64,000 nucleotides of DNA from Amoebophrya sp. A120 (GCA_905178155.1 CAJINV010000016.1:1021386-1085385), one strand, 5' to 3'. Positions 9,438-48,031 are shown, numbered from the stretch's first letter. The notes: a model not told the origin generated them from the sequence alone. Program-made: numbers and translations.

Positions 9438-9605
9438 CGAGGACAAGGGCGTTTCTTCAGCATGGCCACACGTATCAGGTGGGCAACATTTCTGTTAGAT
9501 ATGCAATTTATTTGTACGTGCAGCTGCAGGTTTGCCATGCGGGGGTAATGAATTTGTCTTGCATAGAAGCACCGCAGAGCTTATGACTGGTCCAGGTACA
9601 GTCCG

Positions 9606-10061
9606 GTGCGCGTGCGGGGGAGGTCACCGGATCAACTTCGCGCAAGAATGACCACAAACTCGGAAAAGAGCGCGGTGGGACAAGAATTTGCTGTCAGAAC
9701 TTCTACACAGCAAAGACGACGAACAAGACCCGCCGGCGCGGCGGCAGGCGCAGGCGTCTGCAAGGAGACGGAAGAAGCCTTCGTGCCCTCTATCAAGAAG
9801 AAAGCGGTGACATCGTCCAGTCCGAAAAGCCCGGATCACGATGCGAGAGGAATTTTGGTAAAGACGGGGGCTGTTGCTACACCGTCCACATGTAGTAGGT
9901 CGACTTCCTTCTCGTCTTCCAGTAGCTCCTGTGCAAAGGAGAAGTTCAAGTTCTACTCGTCTTCGTACTTGTTCCCACCTGCTCCTCGTGCGGCTTTCTA
10001 CTTTCCGAGCGACGAGGACGAGAAAATAGTGCGGAAGATGGGACGAGCAGAGGAACAAAGT
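9606..10061 (+). pseudogene. 5' part of host ORF interrupted by the YR retrotransposon
   Basis: ...gag gaa caa agt (EEQS, ends 10061) joins aat gac ctc cag cag aca agg gaa atg (from 29695) in frame with ORF 29719-30480. Confidence 0.75.
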
Positions 10062-10229
10062 GGCCAACCCGTCTCCTGGGCGGCAAGGTATACTTGCTTT
10101 CTCCTGTAGTGTATTCACAAAAATGCTGTTTCAAAATAAATTTCGTATCAAAATAAATACAGTGATCCAAATTTGTAATAGCTCTTTTGTGAACCGGACG
10201 TGCCCACCGCACTGCCCGCAGTTTTGTTT
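10062..10229 (+). repeat. Split direct repeat A1 (left terminus)
   Basis: 168 bp, near-identical to 26300-26467 (starts ggccaacccgtctcctgggcgg, ends gcagttttgttt). Confidence 0.95.
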
Positions 10230-11014
10230 ATGCTTCGCGCTGAGCAATCTCGGGGTCCATCACATTAGAGGCCGGGCGGGCCATTGTGGCCGCGGCTTGG
10301 GCTTGCTCCGTCATGCCTCAACCTGCCTTCAAGGCGGGCCAAGCATGTCGTCTCCACGCCTGGGGCATGCAGTCAGTGGTCGACGTACGTTGCTAGTCGC
10401 AACTGCGTCGTGGGACGCCGGAACTGCAAGTAGCAGTACGGCGCCCCTGGCGGCCTCGTCCGGTTCCCAAACCGGGCGTGGGAAAAACGCCAAAGTGGGG
10501 GTACCTTAGTATCCCTGGAGCGGGCGGCCCGTAAACGGGACCCGACCCGGGTAGATCCTCGTGCAGGCCCCGACCTGCCGAGAAGAATCCCCGGAAGTGC
10601 CCGACTGGCACAGGACGTGTGGAAGTCCAACGTAGGCGTCTGACAAACGCCGGCAAAGGCTGACGGGGTCCTCCCTCCCCTCACCTGCGCCACTCAGGGT
10701 GAGCACAGCTCCCCGAAACCCCATTCCAGTGAGCCCCCACCCGCTCACACCGAGGCGTCTCTCCCTGTTGGAAGGGGAGGGGGCCTCACTGTCACTAGAG
10801 TCACGCGCTTGGGTTAATCTCAAGATTGCTTCGCGCAACCAGGCGCGTGCCTCAAAATTCCACGTGTAAAAGCGCCCCGGGCGCCGTGCGCCGCACGAAA
10901 AAAACGGCAAGGCAACGTGGGGCACCTCGCCCCACGGTGTGTGCCGCTCGTAAGAGCGGCTGTGTCTCTCCTCCGCGTAGGAGAGAAGCGTGGCGCCGAC
11001 AGGCACCACGCAAG

Positions 11015-11137
11015 ACGCGCGCGTGCACCTCGAGGCCACGATCACGCGTGCGTCTCGAAACGCGCGCGTGCGCCTCGAGGCCACGAGGCGCACGAGCACA
11101 CGCAGTGCGAGGTCACGCGCGCGCGTGCACCTCGAAA
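11015..11137 (+). repeat. Imperfect tandem repeat (cgcgtgcRYctcga units) in the element's CpG-rich 5' leader
   Basis: About four units of gcgcgtgcacctcgaggccacga-like sequence; repeated in the second copy at ~17251-17373. Confidence 0.7.
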
Positions 11138-11696
11138 CCCTGGCCGCGAGGCGGCAGGGGAACGGACTACGAGATGCAGCCGCACCGTAGTAGCCGCGTG
11201 TTCGTTTATGGTTGAAAATCGATCGACAGGACGTTGTGCATCAAGATTCGCTGCCTAAATGTCGGTCGTCGCAAGAAAGCTGTCGGTCGAGAGGTGATTG
11301 AGAATGGATTTTCGTACTTCAGAGACCGTTGCGACACGTACGCGAGCCGTAGAGCCGCAAGGACCTCGACGTCAAAGGATATGCGAAAATCGTACAACAG
11401 AAGGACGTTCAAAAAATCGTGGGCAGTACAACCCACGCCGATCCCTAGCAGTAAAGTCGTCCAGTAGATACTGATCGATCGTCGAACGACCATAGACACA
11501 AACCGCAGGCAGATAAAATCACATACAGGGCAGGAGCTTAAAGCACATTGCAAACCCACATAGTGCTAGCACTAGGCACTCTAGAGCGCGCTAGTTTGCA
11601 CAAAATTACAGCAATTAAGCACACTACCCAGTAAGAAGCTTTTGCTTGCCCCTAGCGAACAAAGCAAGTGCAACCCCAGAGCACAAAAAACCCCCA

Positions 11697-14600
11697 ATGG
11701 CGCAAGCGTACATCTTCGGAGGCGGGTCCCCCGACCCGCTGAGACTTCGACTGGAGGTACATCCGGACCTCTTCGAGAACACGCTAAAAGCGCGGGTGGC
11801 GGCAGCATCCGCGGGATGCGACCCAGAGCACCTGGACGTCCGCTGGAAGCAGGCCCTGGCCACGAGTAGAGGGCTAGACTGCATCATCTCCGACCTGGAG
11901 AATGGCGAGTTCCTGAACTTCGATTTGTGGGAAAACGCACCGCACGCGCAGCTGCCGCTGCCGGAGCACACAGTCGCGCACTACGTGCGATCCATCGTGG
12001 CCCTCACGTTGGTATACGAAAAATACAACTCCGTCGAGTTCGACCGTTTACCCTCGGAAAAACTCAGGAAGATGGCGGTGATGCACGGCCTGCAATCTGG
12101 CGGGAACAAAGCCGCGAGGCTGAACACCCTCCAGCTCGCCGCAGAGCAAGACCACCTGTATCAGTTCCCGCTGCCACTCTGCCCAGTCGTTACGGATGGC
12201 CTGACCATCCACGACATCACCCAAACGTCGATCCAGGTGGACGGCAACCCGGTCCCCGGACAAGCGGCGGGACCCGCCCTGCACCCCATTGTCTACCCGA
12301 ACGGAGACAACGCCGCGGCGTATCAGGCGGCCCAACAGGCGGCAGCAGCTGCAGCAGCGGCGCAACAGCAGGCAGCAGCCGCACAGCAGGCGGCGCAACA
12401 GCCCGCGGCGGCACAGGGCCCAGGACAGCAAGCGGCAGGTTCAAACACTCTGCTACTACAAGTGCTCGCTCACTCTCCCGCTCGGAGCAAGCTGCTCTTA
12501 CTTACAGTACAACGCTGCAACGTTTTGGAAAAAGTTGCAGGGGCCGCGGCCTGCGAGCTGCTTCTAACTACGCACGCAAGTGCCTGTAATATGTCAACCC
12601 ACAAAACTCACAGGTGGAGCAGCACAGGGTGCGGCAGGCGGGGCACCACCGCCCCCAGCGGTACAAGCGCAAGCCGCGGGAGCAGCTGCAGCTGCAGCAC
12701 CACCGGGCGGAGCAGCACAGGCACAAGCCGGAGGCGCAGGTACCAACTAGCGCCTCTTCGTGTAGCTATCCATACTGTCGCTTTTACAGCCATGACGCAG
12801 CCCCTAGCTAACGCATGACGAACAGCAACACAAATAACACACAGGTGCGCAAGCGCAGCAAGGGGGAGCAGCTCAGGCAGGAGCAGCAGGAGCACCCGCT
12901 GGCGCAGTCCAGGCAGCCGCGGCGGCCGGAGCAGGTATCTTGCTGTCGTCGCCACGAAGGGCCTTCTACATGCTCGAAATCACCTAAAGTCCTGCGCTAT
13001 CAAAATAAACGCGTCTCGTGCTGTCAAAATAAAAAGGCGCTGAGCAAGAGCGTAACTTGTAGCGTTTTCCCTTCCCCAATCGGGGCAAAAGTCCCCCGCT
13101 GCGTGTCTCGCAATGAAATTAACTCAACACCACAGGAGCGGGACAACAGCAAGGGCCACAGGCACAACAGGCGCAAAACCCGGCGCAGCAGGCACAAGCT
13201 GGGGGAGCAGCAGGCACAGCTTCTACAAGTCTGTCTTTGCCCTTCTGCATTTTCCAGAACTCTAGACCCGACTAGAGTACAGCTCTAGAGGACTTTAGAC
13301 CCCCGCAAGCACGTAATTTTGTGCGAATTTAGTCGGGGCTCCAGATCTGCAAAACCAAAGTAAATCCCAAACACCCAAACCACAGGAGCGAACGCCGCGG
13401 GACAACAAGGACAGCAGGCCCAGCCACCGCAGGCAGGAGCGCAAGCAGGTAACCTACCCATCCCGCCAGCAGCGGCCGCGGCTGCGGGGGCACAGTTACC
13501 AGTGGCAGGGCCACAGCAGCAGCAGCAACCGGTGGGAGCGCAAGCCCAGCAACAACAACCCCCGCAAGTACAGGCCCAGCAACAGCAGGCCCCGCCGCAG
13601 CAGGCGCAGCTGGGAGCACAGCCAGCTGGACAACAACAGGCCGCGCAACAGCAACAAGCCCCCGGACAGCAACAAGCTGGAGTACAGCAGGGTGGACAAC
13701 AACAGCCACCCCCGGCCGGACAGCAAAACCAAGGTGGACAAGCCCAGCAGCCACTGCTACCGCCCGTGGGGCAGCAGGCCCAGGCGCAGGGACAGCAGAA
13801 CCAAGGTGGACAAGTCCAACAGCAGCTGCAGCCCCCCGCGGTGCAGCAGAACCAGGGCGGACAAGTCCAACAGCAACCGCAGCTCCCCGCGGTGCAGCAG
13901 GCACAGGCGCAGGGACAGCAGCACCAAGGTGGACAGGCTCAACAGCAGCTGCAACCCCCCGCGATGCAGCAGGTCCAGGCCCAGGGACAGCAGAACCAAG
14001 CTGCCGGGGCGCAGCAACAATACGTCGTGATAAACGGCATGGCATACCCGGTCGCGCAACAACCGCAGCAACCGCAGCAACCACAGCGGCAACAGCAGCA
14101 AGGGGTTCAGCAATACGCAGTAGCGCACGCACCACCGCAACAAGGGCTACCCATGCCGAGGGTCGGAGGAACGCAGCCTCCGCTTCCACCGCCGCAGCAG
14201 CAACGGCAGGCGCAAGCACAGGCAAACGTCTACGGTGCGTTCAACGCAGGAGGGACGCAGAACACTAGTGCCGGTGGAGTCCACAACTTCGAACGGTACG
14301 CGGCAACGGCCCCGCCACCGACCAACAACACGCGGACCGACATGCACAATTTCCACAATTGGAGCGAAGACGAGAGGGCTCTGTACTTCGACTCCATGGT
14401 AAAGCGGGCAACGGGAACCGCGACGGGCGTGCAACTGCCGGAGGAGCCCGTCCTGCAACCTGTCAACGCCTACTGGCACATGCGGGATGAAACGCTTAAG
14501 CCCTTGCCGCGCAACCGCAGGCCGGATGATGACGCCGGGGCCGACCCCGGTTACTGGGTCATTACCTCCCAGAACAGACCGGTGAACTTGGAGTGCTTCC

Positions 14601-16327
14601 CGTTAGTCTGGATGTCCAGCCAGTACAAGCGACAGCAGTCGCTTCCAAGGGTGAGATCGAAAAACGCCGACGGCTCGTACACCAACGGCAAGTCATGGAA
14701 CGAAGACAGGGTGTACGAAGTGGAGTACATCTCGGATTTGCGAGATTTGTTGGTGTGCCACAACGCAACCGGTGCGCAGGTGCAGGTCAACATACAGAAC
14801 CTCACCTACATGTCGGAACACCTTTGGTTGGATACCGATTCGGTATTGTATGAATACCTCAGCAAGTTGGATCCGGAAGCAAGGCGGGCAGCCAAAATGG
14901 CCGTCCTCTGGGCGATGGCGCTCGGAATCAGAGACGAGCTCCAGCTGGTCTTGCGGGCCCTCCAGGAGGAAGAAAGCCTCACCACGAAGGGGGTACACAA
15001 CAAGGACACCCTGTACAAAAATACCCCGAAGCACTGGAACGGCGTCTCCTCGGACCTGGAGTGGTACATCAAAAACGGCAAGACAGTCGGCATCACGGAA
15101 GGGCAGGCGAAGTCCCTCGTCTACGAGATGCGCCGCATCATCGACAAAAAGATGACGACAGCCACCCCCAACATCACGCAAACGGACATCGAACACGTAC
15201 AAGTCGGCCACATCTATGCCTTTTGGCAATGATGCGTTGACGGAATTTTCGAAGTCAACGGGGTACAAAGCGCCCATCTCCCGAAAGGGGCTAACTTTGT
15301 GACGTCCTCCAGTCGAGCGGAGAAATTCCACCACATGTGCATCGTCGCCACGGTGCTCAACATGTACGACACAGTCGCGGGCGCTACCGCCGACCTGACC
15401 GGACTGCGGGACACGATAAACATCAAGTCGGATTATGAGTTTCAAATTCAAATTTTGCCATCCGTCATCTACTCGTTGGCGTCGAAGCAACCACCGAACA
15501 AGTCGTTGAGCTTGGGACTTTCCGAGGGCCAGGGTGGCAACGCCAGGACTTTCAAGTACGTGGTAGAAAAGGTCGCCACGGGTCGCTGCAGCGAGATCAT
15601 CAAGCAGAGACAGTTCTACTTCGCCTCGAACGGGCTCGGGGAAGCGAATCCGAATCCGGACAACCTCACTAGAGCGCAGAAACGCGCAGCAAAGCGCCGA
15701 GGCGAAGAGGCGGGTAATCCGAACCCGAAGCAGCAACGCAAGGCGTCCAGCAGCGACGAACCGATGTTCCCCAAAAGCCCGACCTTCGACCTGCCCAAGC
15801 AGCAGGCCAGCAGCTCCTCCTGGACGAAAAACGCAAACCAGTCCAAGATGGGGAAGCTTGATATCACTACCGCCAAGTACAAGAACGACTGGAACGCGAA
15901 GGACCCGTACTTCCAGCGCAAAATGAGCGCTCCAAAGTCAGTCATCCACGCGGGAAAAATGACGATGGTCTGCTCGGCGGCCGGCCTGGTGGAAGAACCG
16001 GGTATCTCGGCCTTAAACTGGCCGCTCAGCGTGTGCCGGGATTTCCACATGCAAGGATCTTCCTGCATCGGCGGTTGCAAAAAGTGGCACGACATCCCCG
16101 AGGAGTACAGGACGGACACGCAGTCTTGGTGGCACATCCTGAACATCCAAAGCGCCGTGGCCAGCAACAACTCCAAGAACCTTCAGCAGCTCCAGCCCTG
16201 CCTCCCCATGTCACCACCCGGGAACGGCGGGAAAGGCGGAAAAGGCAAGGGAGGAAAAGGCAAGGGCAAGAAGGGCAAGGGCAAGAAGGGCAAGGACAAG
16301 CAGGAAAAATCGGCCGAATACGAATAG
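11697..16327 (+). CDS. Gag-like ORF1, spliced (exons 11697-12438, 12614-12739, 12845-12934, 13136-13213, 13386-16327); Gln/Ala/Gly-rich middle, C-terminal CCCH-type Zn finger and GK-rich tail; in-frame TGA at 15230-15232
   Basis: Four phase-1 GT(GC)..CAG introns join all pieces in frame (960 aa to TGA, ~1325 aa if read through). CRDFHMQGSSCIGGCKKWH followed by GGKGGKGKGGKGKGKKGK. First ORF of the element. Fourth donor could instead be GT at 13229. Confidence 0.75.
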
Positions 16328-16775: not shown

Positions 16776-19700
16776 ACCCGACCCGGGTAGATCCTCGTGC
16801 AGGCCCCGACCTGCCGAGAAGAATCCCCGGAAGTGCCCGACTGGCACAGGACGTGTGGAAGTCCAACGTAGGCGTCTGACAAACGCCGGCAAAGGCTGAC
16901 GGGGTCCTCCCTCCCCTCACCTGCGCCACTCAGGGTGAGCACAGCTCCCCGAAACCCCATTCCAGTGAGCCCCCACCCGCTCACACCGAGGCGTCTCTCC
17001 CTGTTGGAAGGGGAGGGGGCCTCTCTGTCACTAGAGTCACGCGCTTGGGTTAATCTCAAGATTGCTTCGCGCAACCAGGCGCGTGTCTCAAAATTCCACG
17101 TGTAAAAGCGCCCCGGGCGCCGTGCGCCGCACGAAAAAAACGGCAAGGTAACGTGGGGCACCTCGCCCCACGGTGTGTGCCGCTCGTAAGAGCGGCTGTG
17201 TCTCTCCTCCGCGTAGGAGAGAAGCGTGGCGCCGACAGGCACCACGCAAGACGCGCGCGTGCACCTCGAGGCCACGATCACTCGTGCGTCTCGAAACGCG
17301 CGCGTGCGCCTCGAGGCCACGAGGCGCACGAGCACACGCAGTGCGAGGTCACGCGCGCGCGTGCACCTCGAAACCCTGGCCGCGAGGCGGCAGGGGAACG
17401 GACTACGAGATGCAGCCGCACCGTAGTAGCCGCGTGTTCGTTTATGGTTGAAAATCGATCGACAGGACGTTGTGCATCGAGATTCGCTGCCTAAATGTCG
17501 GTCGTCGCAAGAAAGCTGTCGGTCGAGAGGTGACTGAGAATGGATTTTCGTACTTCAGAGACCGTCGCGACACGTACGCGAGCCGTAGAGCCGCAAGAGC
17601 CTCGACGTCAAAGGATATGCGAAAATCGTACAACAAAAGGACGTTCAAAAAATCGTGGGCAGTACAACCCACGCCGATCCCTAGCAGTAAAGTCGTCCAG
17701 TAGATACTGATCGATCGTCGAACGACCATAGACACAAACCGCAGGCATATAAAATCACATACAGGGCAGGAGCTTAAAGCACATTGCAAACCCACATAGT
17801 AGCTAGCACTAGGCACTCTAGAGCGCGCTAGTTTGCACAAAGTTACAGCAATTAAGCACACTACCCAGTAAGAGACTTTTGCTTACCCCTAGCGAACAAA
17901 GCAAGTGCAGCCCCAGAGCACAAAAAACCCCCAATGGCGCAAGCGTACATCTTCGGAGGCGGGTCCCCCGACCCGCTGAAACTTCGACTGGAGGTACATC
18001 CGGACCTCTTCGAGAACACGCTAAAAGCGCGGGTGGCGGCAGCATCCGCGGGATGCGACCCAGAGCACCTGGACGTCCGCTGGAAGCAGGCCCTGGCCAC
18101 GAGTAGAGGGCTAGACTGCATCATCTCCGACCTGGAGAATGGCGAGTTCCTGAGCGTCGATTTGTGGGAAAACGCACCGCGCGCGCAGCTGCCGCTGCCG
18201 GAGCACACAGTCGCGCACTACGTGCGATCCATCGTGGCCCTCACGTTGGTATACGAAAAATACAACTCCGTCGAGTTCGACCGTTTACCCTCGGAAAAAC
18301 TCAGGAAGATGGCGGTGATGTACGGCCTGCAATCTGGCGGGAACAAAGCCGCGAGGCTGAACACCCTCCAGCTCGCCGCAGAGCAAGACCACCTGTATCA
18401 GTTCCCGCTGCCACTCTGCCCAGTCGTTACGGATGGCCTGACCATCCACGACATCACCCAAACGTCGAACCAGGTGGACGGCAACCCGGTCCCCGGACAA
18501 GCGGCGGGACCCGCCCTGCACCCCATTGTCTACCCGAACGGAGACAACGCCGCGGCGTATCAGGCGGCCCAACAGGCGGCAGCAGCTGCAGCAGCGGCGC
18601 AACAGCAGGCAGCAGCCGCACAGCAGGCGGCGCAACAGCCCGTGGCGGCACAGGGCCCAGGACAGCAAGCGGCAGGTACAAACACTCTGCTACTACAAGT
18701 GCTCGCTCACTCTCCCGCTCGGAGCAAGCTGCTCTTACTTACAGTACAACGCTGCAACGTTTTGGAAAAAGTTGCAGGGGCCGCGGCCTGCGAGCTGCTT
18801 CTAACTACGCACGCAAATGCCTGTAATATGTCAACCCACAAAACTCACAGGTGGAGCAGCACAGGGTGCGGCAGGCGGGGCACCACCGCCCCCAGCGGTA
18901 CAAGCGCAAGCCGCGGGAGCAGCTGCAGCTGCAGCACCACCGGGCGGAGCAGCACAGGCACAAGCCGGAGGCGCAGGTACCAACTAGCGCCTCTTCGTGT
19001 AGCTATCCACACTGTCGCTTTTACAGCCATGACGCAGCCCCTAGCTAACGCATGACGAACAGCAACACAAATAACACACAGGTGCGCAAGCGCAGCAAGG
19101 GGGAGCAGCTCAGGCAGGAGCAGCAGGAGCACCCGCTGGCGCAGTCCAGGCAGCCGCGGCGGCCGGAGCAGGTATCTTGCTGTCGTCGCCACGAAGGGCC
19201 TTCTACATGCTCGAAATCACCTAAAGTCCTGTGCTATCAAAATAAACGCGTCTTGTGCTGTCAAAATATAAAGGCGCTGAGCAAGAGCGTAACTTGTAGC
19301 GTTTTCCCTTCCCCAATCGGGGCAAAAGTCCCCCGCTGCGTGTCTCGCAATGAAATTAACTCAACACTACAGGAGCGGGACAACAGCAAGGGCCACAGGC
19401 ACAACAGGCGCAAAACCCGGCGCAGCAGGCACAAGCTGGGGGAGCAGCAGGCACAGCTTCTACAAGTCTGTCTTTGCCCTTCTGCATTTTCCAGAACTAG
19501 ACCCGACTAGAGTACAGCTCTAGAGGACTTTAGACCCCCGCAAGCACGTAATTTTGTGCGAATTTAGTCGGGGCTCCAGACCTGCAAAACCAAAGTAAAT
19601 CCCAAACACCCAAACCACAGGAGCGAACGCCGCGGGACAACAAGGACAGCAGGCCCAGCCACCGCAGGCAGGAGCGCAAGCAGGTACTCAGCTACCTAGT

Positions 19701-20205
19701 GTTGCGTTAGATTAGGCTTCGAGAAGCGCGTAAGAGTCTGCCCTTGTTGAAACTTCGTTGCGCCTGCCATTCATTGGCGGCCCACCACCAACTGCCAACA
19801 ACTCAATAAAAACAACACACAGGTAGCCTACCCATCCCGCCAGCAGCGGCCGCGGCTGCGGGGGCACAGTTACCAGTGGCAGGGCCACAGCAGCAGCAGC
19901 AACCGGTGGGAGCGCAAGCCCAGCAACAACAACCCCCGCAAGTACAGGCCCAGCAACAGCAGGCCCCGCCGCAGCAGGCGCAGCTGGGAGCACAGCCAGC
20001 TGGACAACAACAGGCTGCGCAACAGCAACAAGCCCCCGGACAGCAACAAGCTGGAGTACAGCAGGGTGGACAACAACAGCCACCCCCGGCCGGACAGCAA
20101 AACCAAGGTGGACAAGCCCAGCAGCCACTGCTACCGCCCGTGGGGCAGCAGGCCCAGGCGCAGGGACAGCAGAACCAAGGTGGACAAGTCCAACAGCAGC
20201 TGCAG
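16776..20205 (+). repeat. Second, slightly diverged copy of element 5' leader + gag N-terminus (matches 10540-~13830)
   Basis: Collinear with SNPs, ATG at 17934; bounded by a single N (16775) and a 100-N gap; carries an extra 139-bp intron 19684-19822. Confidence 0.9.
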
Positions 20206-20339
20206 NNNNNNNNNNNNNNNNNNNNNNNNNNNNNNNNNNNNNNNNNNNNNNNNNNNNNNNNNNNNNNNNNNNNNNNNNNNNNNNNNNNNNNNNNNNNNNN
20301 NNNNNATGCTGATAAACTAACAAAACACTTGAAACACAG

Positions 20340-21167
20340 GCCACGCACGTTAGGAAAATCTACCAGCAATTCGGTCGGCACAGCTACCAGGCGGAACGCC
20401 GTCGCGTCGGCTTCCTTCGGGCCCAGAGGGACGCGGTCCACGAAGCCTACAAGGAAACGCCGAGGGCACGCATCTACCACGACTACAGCTCAGACCCCAA
20501 CACCGGGAGGCACTGGGGTCCCAAACCCACGGCGCTGGACATCGCAAACGTGCACAAGGCGCAGTTCTATAAATTTCCGAACTACCATATCCGGGTGATG
20601 ATGCACGAGCAGGACAAAAGCGGGCCACTCTTCCCGGAAGACGAGTGGTCGCCGGAAGAGCTCACGCGCCATCTACAAAGCCATGTGATGGCCCTGATTA
20701 AACCCCTGCGCGACCGCAGCACCTGTGAGTCACTCCACCCCGACAAATACCGTAACTACATGGACCCCGTGGAGTACCATGGACTTCGAGACAAGACGGG
20801 GGGCCCATGGGACAAGGGCGACGGCGCGGCCAAGGACGAGCCGCGACTCCTGCACCGAGCGTGGGCACCCACACCAAAGGAGCAGGACGCACTGGCCTCG
20901 TACCCCTCGTACGGATTCGGGCAAACGGAGCTCGAGAAGTTTAACGTGCGGGTCTCCTTCAGCCCGTGCGCCGAACAGGCGGGGGTAAGCTGGCAGGGCA
21001 TGAGATCCCGCATCCACATTACCTGCCTAGTCACCGCGTGCCGCACGCTCGAAAAGCAACAGGGTCAGCTCGGCGACGATGAACCAATGCTCTTGCCCCT
21101 GGAGCTGCATGTGTCGAAATTTCCCGAGAAGAAGCCGACCTGGGGTTTCCCTGACGGCTACGACTGA
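20340..21167 (+). CDS. Element accessory ORF 2 (3' exon; unknown function)
   Basis: Open from 20340, in frame with 20550-21167; preceded by ctaac and an aaacacag acceptor like the gag introns; 5' exon lost in the gap. Confidence 0.6.
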   Translation, partial: ATHVRKIYQQFGRHSYQAERRRVGFLRAQRDAVHEAYKETPRARIYHDYSSDPNTGRHWGPKPTALDIANVHKAQFYKFPNYHIRVMMHEQDKSGPLFPEDEWSPEELTRHLQSHVMALIKPLRDRSTCESLHPDKYRNYMDPVEYHGLRDKTGGPWDKGDGAAKDEPRLLHRAWAPTPKEQDALASYPSYGFGQTELEKFNVRVSFSPCAEQAGVSWQGMRSRIHITCLVTACRTLEKQQGQLGDDEPMLLPLELHVSKFPEKKPTWGFPDGYD

Positions 21168-21657
21168 GGTATAAGCTAGAACAGGACCTATTTAGAACTG
21201 AGAAAGTCACAACTTGAGCAATAACTCGTGCTAAGGAGCTAACCAATGACAGATAGAAGTCGACAACTTAAAGTCAGAACGTAGTGCAGGAACGGCACAA
21301 CTATAAGACACACGCTAAGGAGTTGCTTCTGACCCAAGAGAAACAAAAAGTCCACACCACCCTAGTAGTGCAGAACTGCAGCTGCGTAACATGCCAGAAG
21401 CGCGCGCCTGTGTCGCCTGTTCAATCACAAAAAGAAAGCAAGTTGCCAGATCCGCACAAATCTGCCTTGAAATGAGCAACAGGTCAGGATCCTTCCCAGC
21501 TAGGTTCTGGTAGAAACTCGACAACATGAACGAGATCACGCTTAGGACTGAAAGCACAGCAACGCACTAGGCCAGCGGTATAAGTAGCAGATAAAGCCCA
21601 GCCCAGCAGCGCGCTCAACATAGCACAAGTATACAACAAACCCACAGGGAACATAGA

Positions 21658-22065
21658 ATGGGAAACCAAGTGAGCTGTTGCATGTGCTGGGAGGAGCAGC
21701 TCTGCTGCTTCCTCGCCATCCTACCAAATGGACAAAAAGTCGCTCTACCGTATGACTCTGTATGGATCCAAAAAGATGGACGCATCCGCACGGTAGGACT
21801 AGGAAGCATGGTCTGGGATACGTCGACAAACGCGCAATCGCTGGAAAGCAAGAAGCCCGTCTTCCCCGTCGCGCGCCTCCGCGCAGAGCTCCTCATCGGC
21901 ACACCGGGGGGATATGCCGAGGGCCACGCCATCCCGGACGCGGACAAAAATCGGGCAACAGCAGAGATTACGCAACTCGTCCGGGAGCGCCTGACCAAAG
22001 GGGAACAGAAAGAGCACTACACCGCATTGCAAAAGCGAGACTACGACGAACTCAGGTGCAAATGA
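21658..22065 (+). CDS. Element accessory ORF 3 (135 aa, unknown)
   Basis: ATG-started ORF with element-like codon usage; Cys-rich N-terminus MGNQVSCCMCWEEQLCC. Confidence 0.45.
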   Translation: MGNQVSCCMCWEEQLCCFLAILPNGQKVALPYDSVWIQKDGRIRTVGLGSMVWDTSTNAQSLESKKPVFPVARLRAELLIGTPGGYAEGHAIPDADKNRATAEITQLVRERLTKGEQKEHYTALQKRDYDELRCK

Positions 22066-22120
22066 TTCGCATGTACAAACAGCAAGAGCGCGCATAGGCC
22101 ATAGCTTGGACTGACTCGCA

Positions 22121-22819
22121 ATGCAACAAAAAACAAACAGGTGCTATATGGCCGACAGCGTCCGCCAGTGGACTAGTGTGCAAATCCGCACCCACCTCGT
22201 GCTCTACCACCGCCTTACCAAGGGTCGCGACCTCACGGAGGCAAGGTATTTCCGGCTGCGCGCGTTCCTCAACGGGCTCGATATGCGGCTGGAGGCTAAC
22301 ATCAACGGCATGCATCACACAAGCTTCCAGCACACGCTCACTGGCCAAACCAACCCCCACGACGCGCATCCCGCGGGATATTGGAAAGACACAGTGGAGC
22401 AATTCCAGTTCGTCTCGCCAGACGCGATGAAGTTATGGTGCGAACAGAACAAGCCCTCGTGGAACACGACGCGGGACCTGGGCCTCCACCGGCTCATGAT
22501 CCGCATCAAACGTGAGCACAGCAACCACATCGAGCAGGACGGCCTGCAGCAATGGGGACCCAGGGAACACACAGGCCTCCGCATGCTTGCCGCGGGAGAA
22601 AAGTCCGCCACGTACATTCCATCCCCGGACCCCCTCCACGGCAAAACCCGGTGGAGGGACCACGCCGAGGGACCGCACAAGCCGAATGAGGTCCCGGGCT
22701 ACAACTCCTACTGCCTCGCCTGCCGGCTCATGGCTTATAACCATTGCCCGACGCCCTGTGGAAGTGAGGAGTGCACACATTGCAGTCGCTGTGTGGACTG
22801 CAACCACGGCTGGGACTAG
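22121..22819 (+). CDS. Element accessory ORF 4 (232 aa) with C-terminal Cys/His cluster (putative Zn finger)
   Basis: C-terminus CLAC...HCPTPCGSEECTHCSRCVDCNH; C/G-ending codon bias. Confidence 0.6.
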   Translation: MQQKTNRCYMADSVRQWTSVQIRTHLVLYHRLTKGRDLTEARYFRLRAFLNGLDMRLEANINGMHHTSFQHTLTGQTNPHDAHPAGYWKDTVEQFQFVSPDAMKLWCEQNKPSWNTTRDLGLHRLMIRIKREHSNHIEQDGLQQWGPREHTGLRMLAAGEKSATYIPSPDPLHGKTRWRDHAEGPHKPNEVPGYNSYCLACRLMAYNHCPTPCGSEECTHCSRCVDCNHGWD

Positions 22820-23119
22820 TCAGATCGGACAGCCAAATGACTAGAAAAGTCATGCACTGAGCGAACGAGCAAGCCTAACAATAGAGGTAGCAACACCAGC
22901 AGAGAGCACCACTAGAAGCCACACAGTAGCCCATATATAGTAAACAGACGGGCGAGGTCGCTAATACGGCCCCCGTAGTGGAGGCTAGCTGAGTGCTCAC
23001 CCCAGCAGACCATAGCGCCCAGCATACATATGCCGCGCACCATAGTAGAGACTCGCTATCGGCACGACAGCAAGCACCACTAGAGAAAAAGCTAGCACGC
23101 GTAAAAAAGGAAAAACAAG

Positions 23120-24907
23120 ATGAACGCACGGGACGCCTCTGTTATACTCCCGCCACAGGGGGTAAACCCGCGCAACATGTACAAACCACCGCAGCCACAA
23201 ACGGCGCCTGCGCAAATTGTCCCAACAACGCGACAAGCGAGCGACACCGCCCTTACGAGGACCTTCACAACACTGCAGGCGGACCTGGAGGCGCAGGCCG
23301 TACAGACAAGCACACTGAGCACCCACGCGCAGCTACACGAGGCCCTGCGAAAATACATCAAGGCCACCTGGCCCAACTTTGGGGACAACGAGCCAGCAAA
23401 CCTCAAGCAAGTGGAGCTGTTCTGCCTCGACAAGGTACAAAAACAGGAACACAGGAGCGCGGATGTAATCTTCACCCAGCTCTTGCACTTCATGATCAAC
23501 CCGCCCCTCGATGAGGACGGACGGCAGCCGGTACTGCTCCAGAACGCCCCCGCATTTGCGCCCCTGGCATTCGAAAAAGCGAAGGAGAGAGTGCAGAAGG
23601 CATGTTCAGCCACGAAGTGCCCGGTCACCAAAGCCTACCCGCTGTCGCTCCACACATTGCGACAGGTGGCCTTTCCGGAACGGGCGGCGCTCATGCTGTG
23701 GTATCTAGTGGGGTGCAGATCAGCAAGCATCCAGGCCATCGAGCCTGGCGACGTCAAAATCCACACCGCGCCGGGCACAAGCGTACCCGTCAGGGTGAGC
23801 GTCTTCATCCGGTCGGATAAAGTCTGCACGGCAACATCGCGCACGGTGCTGATAGGGTGCAACTGCTTCGACGATCCCACATGCTGCCTGCTATGTGAGA
23901 AAGAACACCACGACGCAATCGACAAGCTCAAGGACAGCCACGGCAAAACCTGGCTTCCCCAACTAGCACACTACGGCCTGGGGATCACGGAGCATAGCGT
24001 GAGAAGAGCGCATGCCCTCGAAGCGAGGAGACGCATGCAAAGCGGCAGGCATTGCAACCTCGACCAGTTCCTCCGCGATAGGGGGTGGCAGCTTCGCTCC
24101 ACTTTCGCAGACTACGCGTGCGAACTCCAGGATTTCGTCCACATAAAGTTCCCGCCCATTGGCGCCACGTGGTGGCCGGCGGATCCACTGGACGACTCCA
24201 CCAGCTCAAAATCCATGGTCTTCAGAGACGTCAACAAAGTCACCAATATCACCCGCGCAGAGAACATTGGCACGCTGGCCACCGCCCCCTCCAACTGTCT
24301 CCCGGTGGCCCGCTCCGCCAAACAGACACGAGCCCACGGCGGCCGGTCGCCAAAGCCACCAACCCCGAAGGCAGTTCGAAAGGCAACCGAAGGCGAAAAG
24401 GTCAGCAAATACACCAACCTCGCACGGGGAAAGCCGGCGCTCACCAGTACACTCCGGCAAAACAAGGAGGGAAAGCTAGTCCCCACGCTGCCGACCGTGG
24501 TCAAGAAAAGCTGGGAGGAGCTGGCGGGCCACACCAAAGAGAAATACGTGTACCGACCCAACGACGCCCCAAAGGAGCACCGCGAGGAAGCCTGGGCAGA
24601 ACGGCAACGGCGAGGGGTCGGAACGGCGCAAGAACCTGCAAGGCGCAACAAAAACTACAAACCCTGGCACGATCTACCCCTCCCAGAGCGGGCAAAGCTG
24701 CGAGACGGGGCCGGCGCAAGACACCAGCCCCGCGAGAAGATCGAGTATTACCTACAGGACATAAATCGTGAACGGGTGGCAAACCACCGCGACACGATCT
24801 ACAGGCAGCACGCGGATAAGTCCGGCTTCTACCGAGACAAACCGGATGCAGGCGAGCTCGAGCAGCTACAAAAGGCGGAGACACAGCCCCCTGCGGGACC
24901 TGCGTGA
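23120..24907 (+). CDS. Tyrosine recombinase (DIRS-type YR) with basic C-terminal extension
   Basis: Catalytic motif order R (VGCRSAS), K (RSDK), HxxR (HSVRR), RGW, Y (STFADY). Confidence 0.88.
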   Translation: MNARDASVILPPQGVNPRNMYKPPQPQTAPAQIVPTTRQASDTALTRTFTTLQADLEAQAVQTSTLSTHAQLHEALRKYIKATWPNFGDNEPANLKQVELFCLDKVQKQEHRSADVIFTQLLHFMINPPLDEDGRQPVLLQNAPAFAPLAFEKAKERVQKACSATKCPVTKAYPLSLHTLRQVAFPERAALMLWYLVGCRSASIQAIEPGDVKIHTAPGTSVPVRVSVFIRSDKVCTATSRTVLIGCNCFDDPTCCLLCEKEHHDAIDKLKDSHGKTWLPQLAHYGLGITEHSVRRAHALEARRRMQSGRHCNLDQFLRDRGWQLRSTFADYACELQDFVHIKFPPIGATWWPADPLDDSTSSKSMVFRDVNKVTNITRAENIGTLATAPSNCLPVARSAKQTRAHGGRSPKPPTPKAVRKATEGEKVSKYTNLARGKPALTSTLRQNKEGKLVPTLPTVVKKSWEELAGHTKEKYVYRPNDAPKEHREEAWAERQRRGVGTAQEPARRNKNYKPWHDLPLPERAKLRDGAGARHQPREKIEYYLQDINRERVANHRDTIYRQHADKSGFYRDKPDAGELEQLQKAETQPPAGPA

Positions 24908-24988: not shown

Positions 24989-25420
24989 AGCTGGCACCAT
25001 GCCGGCGGATCGAAAAAAGAGAAAATGATGAGCCCTTCTAGAATGTGAACTGCGAAAGCTGTAAGACAACGCAGGAAGGGCAGCTCCACTGAGCGAATCG
25101 TCATGAGGCGACACGAGCCGGCACCGCGGCGGAATGTGTTCGCGCTCCTCTAGAAAGAGCAGAGCTGAAGTTCCACTGAGATCACACGGATCTCACGCAA
25201 ACTGGTCCTAAAGCAATCTGCCATACTCCCGCGAGATCAAGGGGGCCCACGGCTCCAATCTCGGCGATCCTCCTGCCGCTAAGCTCTTAGTTCCGCCATC
25301 GATCAAGGTGGGCGCGAGTAAACCAAAACACTAACACGCTAAACACACAGACATCAACGAAACGCAGTCGATCCGTTAGTCGATCCATTTAGCAGAAGCT
25401 AGATCCTAATGTGTCCAAAC
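24989..25420 (+). repeat. Repeat B (partial, runs into N gap)
   Basis: Matches the start of 25814-26299 and 29208-29694. Confidence 0.9.
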
Positions 25421-25813
25421 NNNNNNNNNNNNNNNNNNNNNNNNNNNNNNNNNNNNNNNNNNNNNNNNNNNNNNNNNNNNNNNNNNNNNNNNNNNNNNNN
25501 NNNNNNNNNNNNNNNNNNNNNNNNNNNNNNNNNNNNNNNNNNNNNNNNNNNNNNNNNNNNNNNNNNNNNNNNNNNNNNNNNNNNNNNNNNNNNNNNNNNN
25601 NNNNNNNNNNNNNNNNNNNNNNNNNNNNNNNNNNNNNNNNNNNNNNNNNNNNNNNNNNNNNNNNNNNNNNNNNNNNNNNNNNNNNNNNNNNNNNNNNNNN
25701 NNNNNNNNNNNNNNNNNNNNNNNNNNNNNNNNNNNNNNNNNNNNNNNNNNNNNNNNNNNNNNNNNNNNNNNNNNNNNNNNNNNNNNNNNNNNNNNNNNNN
25801 NNNNNNNNNNNNN

Positions 25814-26299
25814 GCTGGCACCATGCCGGCGGATCGAAAAAAGAGAAAATGATGAGCCCTTCTAGAATGTGAACTGCGAAAGCTGTAAGACAACGCAGGA
25901 AGGGCAGCTCCACTGAGCGAATCGTCATGAGGCGACACGAGCCGGCACCGCGGCGGAATGTGTTCGCGCTCCTCTAGAAAGAGCAGAGCTGAAGTTCCAC
26001 TGAGATCACACGGATCTCACGCAAACTGGTCCTAAAGCAATCTGCCATACTCCCGCGAGATCAAGGGGGCCCACGGCTCCAATCTCGGCGATCCTCCTGC
26101 CGCTAAGCTCTTAGTTCCGCCATCGATCAAGGTGGGCGCGAGTAAACCAAAACACTAACACGCTAAACACACAGACATCAACGAAACGCAGTCGATCCGT
26201 TAGTCGATCCATTTAGCAGAAGCTAGATCCTAATGTGTCCAAACCAAAAGTAACAACGTCTGATCTAAAAATGATCTCAGGTACCGACCGACCGGGAGA
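25814..26299 (+). repeat. Repeat B1 (internal), abutting A2
   Basis: 486 bp near-identical to 29209-29694; ends gaccgaccgggaga. Confidence 0.95.
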
Positions 26300-26321
26300 G
26301 GCCAACCCGTCTCCTGGGCGG
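26288..26321. other. Putative YR recombination site at the internal B1/A2 (circle-type) junction
   Basis: ccgaccgggaga-ggccaacccg-tctcctgggcgg: 12-bp inverted arms (10/12 match) around a 10-bp spacer; the element ends meet at the arm/spacer boundary. Confidence 0.55.
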
Positions 26322-26467
26322 CAAGGTATGCTTGCTTTCTCCTGTAGTGTATTCACAAAAATGCTGTTTCAAAATAAATATCGTATCAAAATAAATACAG
26401 TGATCCAAATTTGTAATAGCTCTTTTGTGAACCGGACGTGCCCACCGCACTGCCCGCAGTTTTGTTT
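26300..26467 (+). repeat. Split direct repeat A2 (internal)
   Basis: 168 bp near-identical to 10062-10229; RT ATG follows at 26488. Confidence 0.95.
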
Positions 26468-26487
26468 CGCCCTTAGATGCCACACCC

Positions 26488-29247
26488 ATGAGCCCGAAAA
26501 AACTGGAAGACCTCACCGCCGCCGAAGCGGCGGCGCCAGACACAAGCCAACAGGCATCCATGCAGCGCACGGCCTGGGAGATGCTACACGTCACAAGAGA
26601 CTACGTGCGAGCGGCTCGAATGGCGAGTAGCGTCACAGTCCCGAGCGACACGGTCGCGAACATAAAGCAGATGAAGGCAAATCGGACAGCCTGGGTAGCC
26701 CGAGTCAAAACGGCCATAGCCAAAATCCGGAAAATCGGAAAAGACACAAGAAAAGAAAACGCCGAGCGACACAGCACAGCAGAGCCACACATACAACAGG
26801 CACTAGGATGGGGCGCCAACAAGCGCAACCTGGTCGCCCTTCAGCGGCTCATAGAATGGACACACCACAAGGACATAACCCTCCCAAGCCACTTACTCCG
26901 AGGGGTGCGCACGATTGGCAACGCAGACACGACGGGGGGAGTCTGGGACCTCGACCCCACAGTCACGGCCATCGACCCCCAAGACGTGCAAGACTTCCTC
27001 GATGCTGAGGCCACACTCCTCAAACTCCAGGACGACCTTCCGCTCACGTCCTCCTTCGCGCCGGAGGTACTCCGGAAGCTCCTACAGGGCTGCAGGGAAA
27101 TGGTGGAGAAAGGACTTTACAAGCCGATAGAAAGAAGAAACCTCAAAGCGCGGCCCAGCCCAGCCTTCCCAAAAGTCGAGCTAGAGAAGATCCGCCAGAT
27201 CATCGACTCTAGAGCGCAGAACGTGTGCAGTCGGCTAGTCGAGAAAGTGCAAATCAAAGGCACGCGCACGATCAACGAGATCCTAGAAGCCTTCATGAGG
27301 CCAATAGGGAGAGAGGACGCCCACGCCCTCCCTAGCAGCGTGTCAGCAAAGGAAACCTGGCGGGACACGGCCGAGACTCTGGCACAGGTAGCTGCGGAAA
27401 AGAGTACCACACTCCCAAGCCAGCCCGGCTCGGAACCGCGCCAGCTCGAGCGGGCCCACATCCTCGAAGAGGTGAAGCAATGGAACGCACAGCTAGCAGA
27501 CCACCAAGGGGGAGGGGTCATCCCAGAAATGGGCACGAAGGACTTCGAAAAGTACTACTACGCTTTCGGATGCCTCGACCCCAAGCTCAACGGCATCGCA
27601 TTCTTCGACCCCGACCAGCGGTCATGGCAGTGCGTCGAAAGCTACGTCCTCAACATGGGAAACACCCACTCGGTGCCAGGAGGTACATACATGACCCACA
27701 GGCACGCAACCGCCTCCCCGGGCGGGATAAAAGTACGGGCATGCGCAATTCGCGAAAACACGTAAGCCACGCCTCACAAATCAAACCTGACCTAAAAAAC
27801 AAAAACAGCCTGCCGCGTATCGGAAGCCATACGGACCATACACCAGGCGGGGGGTGGCGTGTCGAGTCTGTATATCGATGACGCTATGCTCTACGGCACC
27901 GACCGTGAGACGTTCAACCTCTGTCGGGACCTCTACCTTGCTGTCGTCGAAGCCCTAGGCATCCCGTTAAGCAAAAAAGCAGCGGGCAACCAAGCATCCT
28001 GCGACAACATCCCCGGAGGAACGCGCGACTTCGTGCGAGCACTAGGAATACGGTATGTGTGGATACGGGACCGGGCGGGCCGCCCCGCCCGACTCTTCTC
28101 CGTAGTGCCGCGCGACAAAGTAGCCTCCGCGCAGCGCGACTGCGACAAGATACTGGCGGCCCACAGCGAAAAGGGAGGTAGAATCCAGCAAAAGGACATC
28201 CAAAAACTCCTTGGCATGGCCCAGTACGTGATATGCAACACAAATCGAGCGGGGGCGGAATTCGTCCGCCATCTGTACCCATGGGCCTCGGATGACTACT
28301 TCCAGGCCAACATCACGTGTCGCAGTCTGCGCAAGGCACTCGCCACGGCCGTAACCACTCTGAGGGCGCTGATTGAGCATCTGCCTCCCTACGAGCACAT
28401 CTACCGAGTGCAGAGGGTTAACTTCCTGTATCTCGACGCTAGCGGCGCCAAAACCCCGGACGCCCCGTGCCTCGCGGACCGGGGGCCCAAGGAGCCGCCA
28501 CGACTTGGGGGCATACTAGTCACCGCCGACGGGAAAGTGAAGGCCTTTACATACCCCCTGCCGGAGGGGCACGAACTTGCCACGTGCGACATAATGACGC
28601 TGGAAACGCTGACGGTGCGACTAGCCCAGCACCTCTACAGCGAGGATATGCGCGGCGCGCTTTCCATGGTGTCCGTTGACAACGTGGTGGAGCTCTTCAC
28701 GCTCGTGAAGCTTAGCTCCCGGCAAAAAAGGGTGTGCAACGTAGCGAACCGCGTCGCCGTGAAAAACCAGGAACTCGGGGCCCGATGCTGGTACCGGTAC
28801 ACCAATACCGCCAGGAACCCGGCCGACGCCTTCAGCCGCAAGGACTACCTGCAGGCCGCGCTCAACTTTTGGCGCCCCGATGAGCTCGCGCACAAGAAAA
28901 ACCACCCAGAGGACCCGGATTTCCTGGCAAAGCAGGCCAAACCCATCGACCCGCACGAGATTTTTCCCGACCGCACAAAGCTACCCTTTGACCCGGTCAG
29001 AGACACAACGGCCCAGGCTGCAAGGCACCGCACCTGGAAGGAGCGCTCTCCAGCACTCACAGGCCAGAACATTCTGGACCTGCCTGACCGGGCATTGGAC
29101 ATGCTCACGATGAGCACACAAGAAGAAGCCACGGCCGCTCTCGGCAGTGGCGGGGCAAGCTCGCGCCTACCAGACGCCTCGCGCGTAAAACGCCCCAGCG
29201 TGCAGGAAGCTGGCACCATGCCGGCGGATCGAAAAAAGAGAAAATGA
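26488..29247 (+). CDS. Reverse transcriptase / RNase H (exons 26488-27682, 27809-29247; ~877 aa)
   Basis: RT motifs TKDFEKYY, VLNMGNTHSVP, LYIDD; RNase H motifs YLDASG, LETL, VDN, NPADAFSR; 126-bp GT..AAAAACAG intron 27683-27808 with an in-frame stop joins the two ORFs. Confidence 0.9.
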
Positions 29248-29694
29248 TGAGCCCTTCTAGAATGTGAACTGCGAAAGCTGTAAGACAACGCAGGAAGGGC
29301 AGCTCCACTGAGCGAATCGACATGAGGCGACACGAGCCGGCACCGCGGCGGAATGTGTTCGCGCTCCTCTAGAAAGAGCAGAGCTGAAGTTCCACTGAGA
29401 TCACACGGATCTCACGCAAACTGGTCCTAAAGCAATCTGCCATACTCCCGCGAGATCAAGGGGGCCCACGGCTCCAATCTCGGCGATCCTCCTGCCGCTA
29501 AGCTCTTAGTTCCGCCATCGATCAAGGTGGGCGCGAGTAAACCAAAACACTAACACGCTAAACACACAGACATCAACGAAACGCAGTCGATCCGTTAGTC
29601 GATCCATTTAGCAGAAGCTAGATCCTAATGTGTCCAAACCAAAAGTAACAACGTCTGATCTAAAAATGATCTCAGGTACCGACCGACCGGGAGA
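29208..29694 (+). repeat. Split direct repeat B2 (right terminus); overlaps last 13 codons of RT/RH
   Basis: 487 bp near-identical to B1; begins agctggcaccatgccggcggatcg (AGTMPADRKKRK*). Confidence 0.95.
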
Positions 29695-30480
29695 AATGAC
29701 CTCCAGCAGACAAGGGAAATGGAAATGGCCTCCAGCTTCGATCGAGCTGCAGAGGGAACGAATGAGAAGGCTGACCTTTATTTTGCCGATAGAACAAACG
29801 AGAAAACTCCAGACGCTGCGGCTTCCACTCTCGTAACGGCCCGTCCGGGAGGTTCAGCTTCTCGTTTGCAGGCCAGGAGTTGCACTACAAAAACTTCTTT
29901 TTCAGGCACAAGAACGCGGAGTCGGAGAAAGTATAACGACGCCAGCAACATCAAGAACTTCTTGAGTGGCACAGCAGCTGCGGATCGTCGTGCGTCTGCA
30001 TCGGCATTAAGTACAACTGCGGTGCTCGACAGCACCATTCCGGTAATGATTCCCGTGTCTGCTTGCAAAAGTCCGGCATTTCTTGTAGCAGGCAGGAGCA
30101 CCTCGACATCAACTTCGTCGTGCAGTAAATGCACATCAAGAACATCAGCGCAGGAAATGTTGAGCCGCATGCTGCAGCGCCTCTCGCCGGCCAAGCTGTC
30201 CCATCGAGTCGCGGCCGCTGCCGCCGCACCGTTCGTCGTAGACAGAAAAAAATCTTCTTCTTCTGCGTCGCTTGACGGTCGGAAAGAGACCACGGTGGCG
30301 GCGAGTGGTGCAGCTCCTGGCACTGCCGCAGGAGCGGCCTCGGGCGGTGGGATTGTGAGCCAGTCGCACAGTAGCAGCTCGTCCTTCTCTGCTTCGGCCA
30401 TCGAACGACAAGCGGAGCGAAACCGGGCGTTGGCACTTGCCTGGGCAAACCGGCGAAAAGAGGTATATCTGTGTACATAG
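29695..30480 (+). pseudogene. 3' part of host ORF interrupted by the retrotransposon
   Basis: In frame with 9606-10061 across the empty site; same Ser/Ala-rich composition. Confidence 0.7.
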
Positions 30481-46175: not shown

Positions 46176-46297
46176 GGCATCCCGCTTGGTTGATGTCTCT
46201 ACGATCCGGGACCAAGACGTCCTTGCCCTCTTTCCTTCGATCACGCCATAGGACGTCGATCGGGTGGTTGACTACGAGATTGGTAGGACGATAGGAA

Positions 46298-46510
46298 TAT
46301 CGCAAGAAAGAACTGTTGCGCTGTGAACTTGTAATGCAGAAACTGTATCTGACTGAGAAGTGTTTGTCTTGCTACACATGCAAGACAATGGATTTTTAGC
46401 TGTCTTTTTCCTTAGGAATCTAGCATGGCAAATTTTCTCTGTGATGTAGAATTAACTTGTGACGCAGAACTTGCAAAATCCTTACAGTGAAACACTTTTT
46501 TCGTACGATA
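46298..46510. mobile_element. Introner copy downstream of the stop codon (3' UTR/intergenic), inverted relative to 42953
   Basis: tatcgcaagaaagaactg...acagtgaaacacttttttcgtacgata; direct repeat aggaa. Confidence 0.85.
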
Positions 46511-48031
46511 AGGAACGAAGCGAAATTAATACTACGAATGGTGCACCAGCACCCCGGTGCAGCAACATCATTTATTTCGAGTAAGTGGGTATCAGGGAGA
46601 GCAAACCAAAACCTATTTTACGGTAAAACGTAACGCGCTGCTTTCTTTTGCGCGACACTTTTTGTTTTTTTCTCATTTAAGTATTCTTTAAGTACCTCTT
46701 TCTTCATCAAATTGCAATCCATGCAAAATTTTATCGATCTGATCTCTGCCTTTTTTCGTGTTCCACAACCGATCTTGCTTTTGCTGTTTCTTTGCCTTTT
46801 CGTATGAATATCAAAAATATTACCGTACTAGTTCAACATCATTATCAACATAACTGTGCTGCTACTTCTTCTTGTATAATCTTCTTGTAAGTAGTGAAGT
46901 TCTTCAAAAAAATTAAAACCTATTACTGTCAAACATAGATCGTAAGAACGGAGTATTTAGAAATATCTGTGAAGTTGTGGGCGATCTATCAATAGGAAGC
47001 ATGTTTTACAGTTTCGTGCGACTACTAACTTACACGACGAGATTCTCGTCGAAGCAGCGGCGTGCTTTGAGGACGAGGAAGCGCGTTGTGCCGGTTCGTT
47101 GGGGGTTGAAGATCTTGTTCACGATTATCTCTGTTCCTTTCCGTTTTGCATGTCGGTCTGCTAGATTCATGCTTTATTTGTGGTTAAATGATAATAGCTG
47201 CACAACCACAAGAACTTCTCGTTTTCTGTCGTGCAGATCGATGATGATGCACACACTAGCTACAATGTCGGTTTGGAGACTTCTTCATCTGATATACTTA
47301 ACACGAAGAATTTTTGATCGGTGCGTTGACCTTGACGACGTCCTCCCACGGCATTTGTCTTGCTTCGATTCTACGACCACTTTTCTCCTTGTGCGCCATG
47401 CCAAAGGCGGTCTCTACTCTTCGGTCCTATTTCTCAGACTTTTCATCATCGGTATGCGTATGAGGATGCTCAGTAATTCCCATACGTAGCTAGAATTAGA
47501 TAGAAGTACAATACGCACGCGTGCTTTCGTTTTCTTTGTCGTAAAATGGACTTATCTTATGCAGAAAGAAAGTCCGAGTCGGTTTTTGAAGATTCCGAAG
47601 TCGGTTCGTACGTCCTGGTCGCACGTTGTACTAGCTCTCTTCTTACTAAAATATGACAGAGACTCTGTCATAGATGGTTAACATTTTTATCGTTCACCAG
47701 CCTTTGACTCGTCCTTACGTTCCAGGTCGTTGACCACCACGTCCATAATAATCATTGTCGTACGTTAAAAAACACGAACACCGCGATATAATTGCGGTGC
47801 CGTCATGACGATAACAAAATTTAAAATCTTCAAACACAGTCTCATCCCCTAGCTGTCCCCTCAATCACGTATTTTGATTATTTCTTCTACTTCCCCAGTA
47901 GAAGCGGTATTTGTGCTCATAGAGGGTTAGTACTACATCTAACTACAACAGTTAGTCCACAATGATCCTCTGTTCTATCTTGTAACTAGCGGCACGAGGA
48001 GGTACATACAACAAGGAAGGACGGCAGCGAA

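Follow-up and report, generated by a model that had tools for sequence, protein, structure and literature searches.

Two copies of a gag-like gene within a retrotransposon of Amoebophrya sp. A120 differ by the exact presence or absence of one predicted intron (intron 5), which was probably lost by an RNA-templated route in which DNA copied from spliced RNA replaced the corresponding stretch in one lineage of copies. The window examined is a stretch of 64,000 nucleotides from this genome (CAJINV010000016.1:1021386-1085385), and all positions are counted from its first letter (Table 1).

Global alignment of the two copies showed that copy 2 contains a 139-bp GT-AG segment in phase 1 on the plus strand (19684-19822), starting with GTACTCAG and ending with AACACACAG, that is missing from copy 1. 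At the matching junction copy 1 reads GCAAGCAG/GTAACC (GCAG/GTAA, the slash marking the joint) with zero bases gained or lost. This segment is the sole large indel between the copies; besides it, the alignment of approximately 3.29 kb contains 33 substitutions, one 1-bp indel and one 2-bp indel. Removal of introns 1-4 from copy 1 leaves a single open frame of 963 codons up to the first stop, and copy 2 has the same frame once all five predicted introns are removed. Keeping the fifth segment in copy 2 places stops in frame. The earlier note had described a 139-bp GT-AG phase-1 intron in copy 2 that is cleanly absent from copy 1, with the four upstream introns retained; alignment and reading frame agree with this description exactly, and introns 1-4 are found in both copies.

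The five predicted introns all lie in phase 1 after CAG G and have an A/C-rich tract at the 3' end. Across the element this acceptor pattern is mildly enriched (6 observed versus 2.0 expected; 4 of 200 shuffles). Intron 5 has CAGGTA at both ends, a repeat of 6 nt compared to 4-5 nt for introns 1-4; the donor of intron 4 is GC in each window copy. The copies also differ at the fourth base after the junction, which is an A in copy 1 (13452) and a G in copy 2. Eight of the nine coding differences between the copies change an amino acid, so selection since the copies split looks weak.

The gene has been called gag by position only. The predicted protein has a Q/A/G-rich middle and matches no Pfam family; in the Atlas search it matched unnamed clusters only (0.93), with zf-CCCH (0.82) as a lead and nothing firmer. 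Four short Ala/Gly/Gln-rich exons occupy 18851-19683, all of them multiples of three in length and in phase 1-1, and exon 5 is 63 nt long. This arrangement suggests that the short exons arose by an old exon-plus-intron duplication, the intron interiors now being dissimilar. A common recent origin of the five introns was considered and rejected because all 10 pairs of interiors are unrelated; the one match, between introns 2 and 5, is confined to their 3' ends. Copy 1 also has an in-frame TGA (15230-15232) between two long ORFs of the same frame, which could be a nonsense mutation, read-through or recoding.

Table 1. Positions of the element's repeats, genes and predicted introns in the window, with nearby dispersed repeats.
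Feature	Position	Strand	Remarks
Repeat A1, left end of element	10062..10229	+	2 differences from A2 in 168 bp
Gag-like gene, copy 1	11697..16327	+	ATG 11697; four predicted introns; last stop 16325-16327
Predicted introns 1-4, copy 1	12439-12613, 12740-12844, 12935-13135, 13214-13385	+	Separating exons of 126, 90 and 78 nt
Intron-less junction, copy 1	13448..13449	+	From sequence and alignment
Copy 2	16776..20205	+	Equals copy-1 10540-13831 plus intron 5; ATG 17934
Predicted introns 1-5, copy 2	18676-18850, 18977-19081, 19172-19372, 19451-19620, 19684-19822	+
Predicted intron 5, gag-like gene	19684..19822	+	Copy 2 only; intron-bearing contigs in X1 and X2; skipping contig in X2
Three further element ORFs	20316-21167, 21595-22065, 22115-22819	+	No Pfam family
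Predicted tyrosine recombinase	23105..24907	+	Atlas 0.98 to Phage_integrase clusters
Repeat B1 (486 bp)	24990..26299	+	Apparently assembled twice (24990-25420, 25814-26299) around a 393-N gap
Repeat A2	26300..26467	+	Joined directly to B1 through AGA
RT-RNase H gene	26488..29247	+	877 aa once one intron is removed; 77 homologues
126-bp GT-AG phase-1 intron, predicted between RT motif B and YxDD	27683..27808	+	Homologue spacing; alignment gap versus P0001
Repeat B2, right end of element	29209..29694	+	1 difference from B1 in 486 bp
Dispersed-repeat examples	36087-36257, 38417-38576, 45971-46133; 39798-40063, 43752-44011, 44080-44330

Intron-bearing and intron-less forms in public reads

Ten public runs were listed, two of which, X1 and X2 (one sample, run type unrecorded), contain 0.80-0.82 of the window words. 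Both cover introns and non-coding parts evenly and yield 95-kb contigs, from which we infer that they are genomic DNA. At three positions (17086, 18156 and 18813) neither window copy matches them, the difference being at full depth, so they probably come from another isolate. In X1 there was only an intron-bearing path, a single 1315-bp contig with intron 5 kept. We do not take this contig as a real haplotype because X2 resolves three forms. X2 contains a 169-bp contig through intron 5 that has 0 differences from copy 2 (depth 139.7) and a contig that skips exactly 139 bases (depth 47.9), a ratio with to without of about 3:1. On its shorter side the skipping contig extends for 24 letters (30 including the shared 6), under the bridging bar of 31 letters, and it comes from one of the two runs of one sample. 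No joint in X1 or X2 skips introns 1-4, making cDNA contamination unlikely. Of two further runs, X3 gave 10 short, mostly poor pieces, none of them over the interior of intron 5, and X4, which is RNA only by guess, gave 4 short pieces and no joint.

Algebra on binned depths in X2 resolved intron plus G at 102, intron plus A at 58 and intron-less plus A at 48, and reproduced three of the reported depth values. The A at 13452 was considered as a repair scar and rejected because the same A is on an intron-bearing contig (depth 58). From these depths the element family is inferred to comprise about four depth units, one of them lacking intron 5. One unit is diverged upstream (depth 49), retains the sequence at intron 4 and has no listed difference from 19611 onward; in its exon 1, five of eight changed codons are synonymous among the 40 of 121 differences listed. 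The copies are mosaics, and the contigs cannot tell which unit lacks intron 5. At the second base of the intron 4 donor (19452) the same algebra implies a second allele in X2, approximately 87 of 215 depth, that has no counterpart in copy 1.

Copy 2 matches copy 1 from its first base to its last and lies between two gaps, a single N at 16775 and 100 N at 20206-20305. In X1 and X2 the sequence beyond both of its edges resembles copy 1, being upstream sequence on the left and coding sequence on the right. Depth over the gag-like stretch resembles that of the downstream genes, and the sequence preceding 20306 is absent from the window. A tandem gag duplication was rejected on the lack of depth doubling over the gag-like stretch and on the edges of copy 2, which continue as in copy 1. 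The two copies are probably not neighbors, the tandem layout being a product of scaffolding, and copy 2 is best read as a fragment that comes from a different copy or allele and was placed in a gap. The assignment of the intron-less junction to this locus is limited in the same way, as a short-read scaffold cannot show physical linkage.

A split-repeat element encoding a reverse transcriptase

Self-comparison of the window gave an element of about 15.3 kb, with the copy-2 wedge and the doubled B excluded, that is laid out as A1-gag-like...YR-B1A2-RT/RNaseH-B2 with split direct repeats (RT, reverse transcriptase; YR, tyrosine recombinase). Depth over B in X1 and X2 about doubles and does not triple. 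Because the RT-RNase H gene is flanked by A2 and B2, the element can be read as a series of two A...B units (24990-29694), the first containing the gag-like gene and YR and the second RT only. AGA is found at the B/A junction and at the right end, and AGT at the left end. The host flanks (9567-10061 and 29695-30480) join into one open frame of 426-427 codons with no target duplication, as judged from this one site. Each of the three further ORFs is preceded by a candidate acceptor-like A/C-rich CAG (20339, 21647 and 22140), and the last ORF ends in a Cys/His-rich stretch. Repeat B contains an acceptor-like site with ACTAAC upstream (25350, 26174 and 29569) and repeat A a donor-like AAG/GTAT (10087-10093); the end repeats may themselves be spliced. 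Outside the element, 36087-54500 contains several families of dispersed repeats of 100-270 bp that are 70-78% alike, occur in both orientations among host ORFs and are possibly introner-like.

The predicted RT is divergent. YxDD is invariant in 28 aligned homologues, in which the RNase H residues D647, E710, D735 and D784 are invariant or nearly so. Pfam family RVT_1 was matched by 4 of 30 homologues, all under the curated cut-off (best 3.8e-6), and RT_RNaseH and RVT_3 by one of 30 each, also under the cut-off. The RT profile matches retroviral RT structures at about 4e-5. The window protein itself had no RT match in Pfam, where nothing relevant was found for nine window ORFs or P0001, and a phmmer search of the RT exon against the PDB gave five matches with E about 2. 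With the predicted intron removed, motif B and YxDD are 29 apart, as in 28 of 28 homologues (29-30); with it kept, the spacing is 71 and includes two stops. Homologue spacing thus confirms the predicted intron in the RT core and is the strongest evidence that the predicted introns of the element are real. The closest relatives of the RT are Amoebophrya gene models (66%, 45%, 43% and 36%), one of which has a YR-like part ahead of the RT.

The ORF at 23105-24907 has the motif order R...K...HxxR...W...Y, which we take to be a tyrosine recombinase signature. Its 10 best named Atlas matches are all in the Phage_integrase family or clan, with the family on 27-86% of members, the score being uncalibrated for protein parts. 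Searches of Pfam, PHROGs and PDB sequences returned no match, a word search returned 0 of 1283 candidates, and a single-sequence structure model (pLDDT 41.5) was uninformative in a fold search. There is thus moderate support for a tyrosine recombinase in place of a DDE integrase. No methyltransferase was matched by Pfam in nine ORFs, a search that also misses the element's own RT.

Route and direction of the change at intron 5

An RNA-templated loss of intron 5 is supported by the removal being exact and frame-keeping and by the element encoding an RT-RNase H. The accessible text of PMC4683709 distinguishes three models of intron loss, in which the cause is recombination with cDNA (precise and 3'-biased), simple deletion or end joining at short repeats. 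Precise loss with a 3' bias is what the RT model predicts, in support of this reading. The element would normally copy itself from unspliced RNA, leaving its introns in place, and once its RT would have used RNA spliced over the last gag-like intron. The route we favor, and regard as quite plausible, is recombination with cDNA of the spliced message, either through template switching or through gene conversion afterwards. With two crossovers, the first in the 63-nt exon 5 and the second in the long last exon, intron 5 alone would be removed. Genomic RNA with only intron 5 spliced could instead have been copied; we consider this possible and rank it slightly below the first route. The lost intron is the final one of the cluster, next to one long exon, so recombination with cDNA of the spliced message fits at least as well as a partly spliced template. 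The other introns may survive through an unspliced nuclear or antisense template, perhaps aided by acceptors that have no pyrimidine tract.

The earlier note had attributed the difference to reverse transcription of a partly spliced RNA. Loss through an RNA template stands, given the exactness and the RT in the element; the partly spliced template becomes one of two RNA routes, the 6-nt repeat means that exactness alone does not require RNA, and the direction is favored only. The further claim, that the loss shows the element to move via RNA, goes too far since a single RNA-to-DNA transfer is the most that the loss shows. Transposition through RNA would instead be deduced from the element's predicted RT and YR and its split repeats.

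A deletion at the DNA level between the CAGGTA repeats, by microhomology-mediated end joining or by RT slippage on an unspliced template, could give the identical junction without spliced RNA. We consider it unlikely. Short end repeats are what the end-joining model predicts, as described in the available part of PMC4683709, and no other of the five introns has an end repeat as long as that of intron 5. There is only one event to judge by, and with many windows screened an exact case is likelier to be noticed. Against this, 475 deletions of 30-400 nt are possible between repeats of at least 6 nt in the gene region of copy 2, and only one of them removes an intron exactly. A further 191 would be tolerable, 183 keeping the frame inside exons and 8 lying inside introns where splicing is kept. 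These 191, together with the excess of amino-acid-changing differences, indicate that selection did not single out the exact removal. There is also no other large deletion between the copies.

Loss is favored over gain as the direction of the change but is not proven. In the alternative, which we regard as improbable, one lineage of copies received an introner-like insertion that duplicated a 6-nt target, and copy 1 kept or regained the ancestral state. According to the accessible text of PMC7789003, Amoebophrya genomes carry active introners with direct repeats of 3-5 nt, and intron 5 is identical (0 differences) in copy 2 and the X2 contig, which would fit a gain. In X2 the depth of the intron-less form (47.9) matches that of the diverged copy (49), a possible outgroup; by depth the intron-less form could therefore be this diverged copy and not a copy-1-like one. 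However, units of about 50 depth occur at other sites too, so the depth match links nothing. The second allele at 19452, together with the unphased contigs, makes recombination or two losses possible.

Loss is supported over gain by the intron-bearing form being the majority and by intron 5 sharing with the four older introns the CAG/G phase-1 splice context and the A/C-rich 3' end. Intron 5 also lacks a terminal inverted repeat, its score being reached in 123 of 300 shuffles; there is no similar sequence elsewhere in the window, and its interior does not resemble those of introns 1-4. At 80% likeness a single contig covers its interior in each of X1 and X2. These features argue against an introner.

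The least probable explanation is an artefact, in which cDNA contamination or an assembler path produced the intron-less form: the scaffold is fragmented, short-read and has three gaps inside the element, and the supporting contig is short, from one of two runs and of unrecorded library type, but the same junction is found in the window and, at depth, in X2, which with X1 probably represents a different isolate. The caution in the earlier note that the intron-less form might be cDNA contamination or misassembly was not borne out, as the skipping and intron-bearing contigs occur side by side in X2 and introns 1-4 are unskipped.

Significance and comparison with known elements

Copying through RNA is expected to erase introns. 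Engineered introns were removed in retrotransposition assays of DIRS-1, as reported in the available text of PMC7192593. We tentatively propose that the element described here is a 15-kb YR retrotransposon of new layout (A-gag-like...YR-B joined to A-RT-B) that might replicate from unspliced or antisense RNA and so keep six to ten spliceosomal introns, including one in the active-site region of its RT, while the RT occasionally recombines with spliced messages, stripping single introns. If this is true, the segregating loss of intron 5 is a natural counterpart of the intron-cassette marker for retrotransposition, and the template of split-repeat elements can be read from the sequences of their copies.

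In the main texts of the mostly open-access literature covered, we found no report of this element or of intron presence/absence among copies of YR retrotransposons. Metagenome contigs contained no related locus (0 of 45 pattern matches). Spliceosomal introns in basidiomycete Ngaro-like elements were reportedly described by Goodwin and Poulter in 2004. The word intron does not occur in the accessible text of PMC3783388.

The element has the features of the DIRS order, namely an RT, an RNase H after the RT, a predicted YR, split direct repeats and, at the one site seen, insertion with no target duplication and with a trinucleotide shared with the circle junction. Compared with descriptions in papers, its predicted content makes it a split-repeat DIRS-order element of unusual layout. 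In VIPER/TATE elements of kinetoplastids the YR lies before the RT, an order that agrees with their listing in the paper on them. That paper, as far as its available text goes, describes separate YR and RT/RH ORFs after a gag-like ORF and split direct repeats, as in our element; unlike our element, B1, A2 and B2 are at the 3' end, and the word intron is absent from the main text (PMC6681497). Ngaro elements, for example that of Cafeteria burkhardae, also have an RT-RNase H, a YR, a positional gag and repeats A1, B1, A2 and B2, but are described in the accessible part of PMC8547959 as approximately 6 kb long, with RT ahead of YR and B1A2B2 grouped at the 3' end. Our element does not have the Ngaro layout: its YR precedes the RT gene, which is placed between A2 and B2, and it measures about 15 kb, with additional ORFs and six or more predicted introns. 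In PAT-type elements of the nematode form (Pat1) and in Kangaroo the internal repeats lie between methyltransferase and YR (PMC4157794, available text), whereas here they lie between YR and RT.

SymbioDIRS of Symbiodinium, as presented in the accessible text of PMC5890265, are dinoflagellate DIRS-order elements with an A-coding-B-A-B structure, a divergent RT missed by Pfam and a shuffled order of YR and Pol, all of which resembles our element. They contain a cytosine methyltransferase, and the majority of those genes are said to be intronless, in contrast to the predicted introns in the gag-like gene and RT here. Amoebophrya introners, from the same host group, resemble intron 5 in having a short direct repeat that overlaps the splice sites; in the available text of PMC7789003 they also make up repeat families and have inverted repeats of 8-20 nt; for intron 5 neither feature was found in the window or in the X1 and X2 contigs. 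Penelope-like elements keep introns through retrotransposition, as our element appears to do, but belong to a different order and have a GIY-YIG endonuclease or none, pLTRs and introns mostly in the 5' UTR (PMC8557442, accessible text). The SpIREs of human L1 are likewise polymorphic copies that exactly lack a spliced-out segment. According to the available text of PMC5860796, SpIREs are dead ends that have lost promoter or ORF1 sequence, whereas here an intron of the coding region was removed and the frame is intact.
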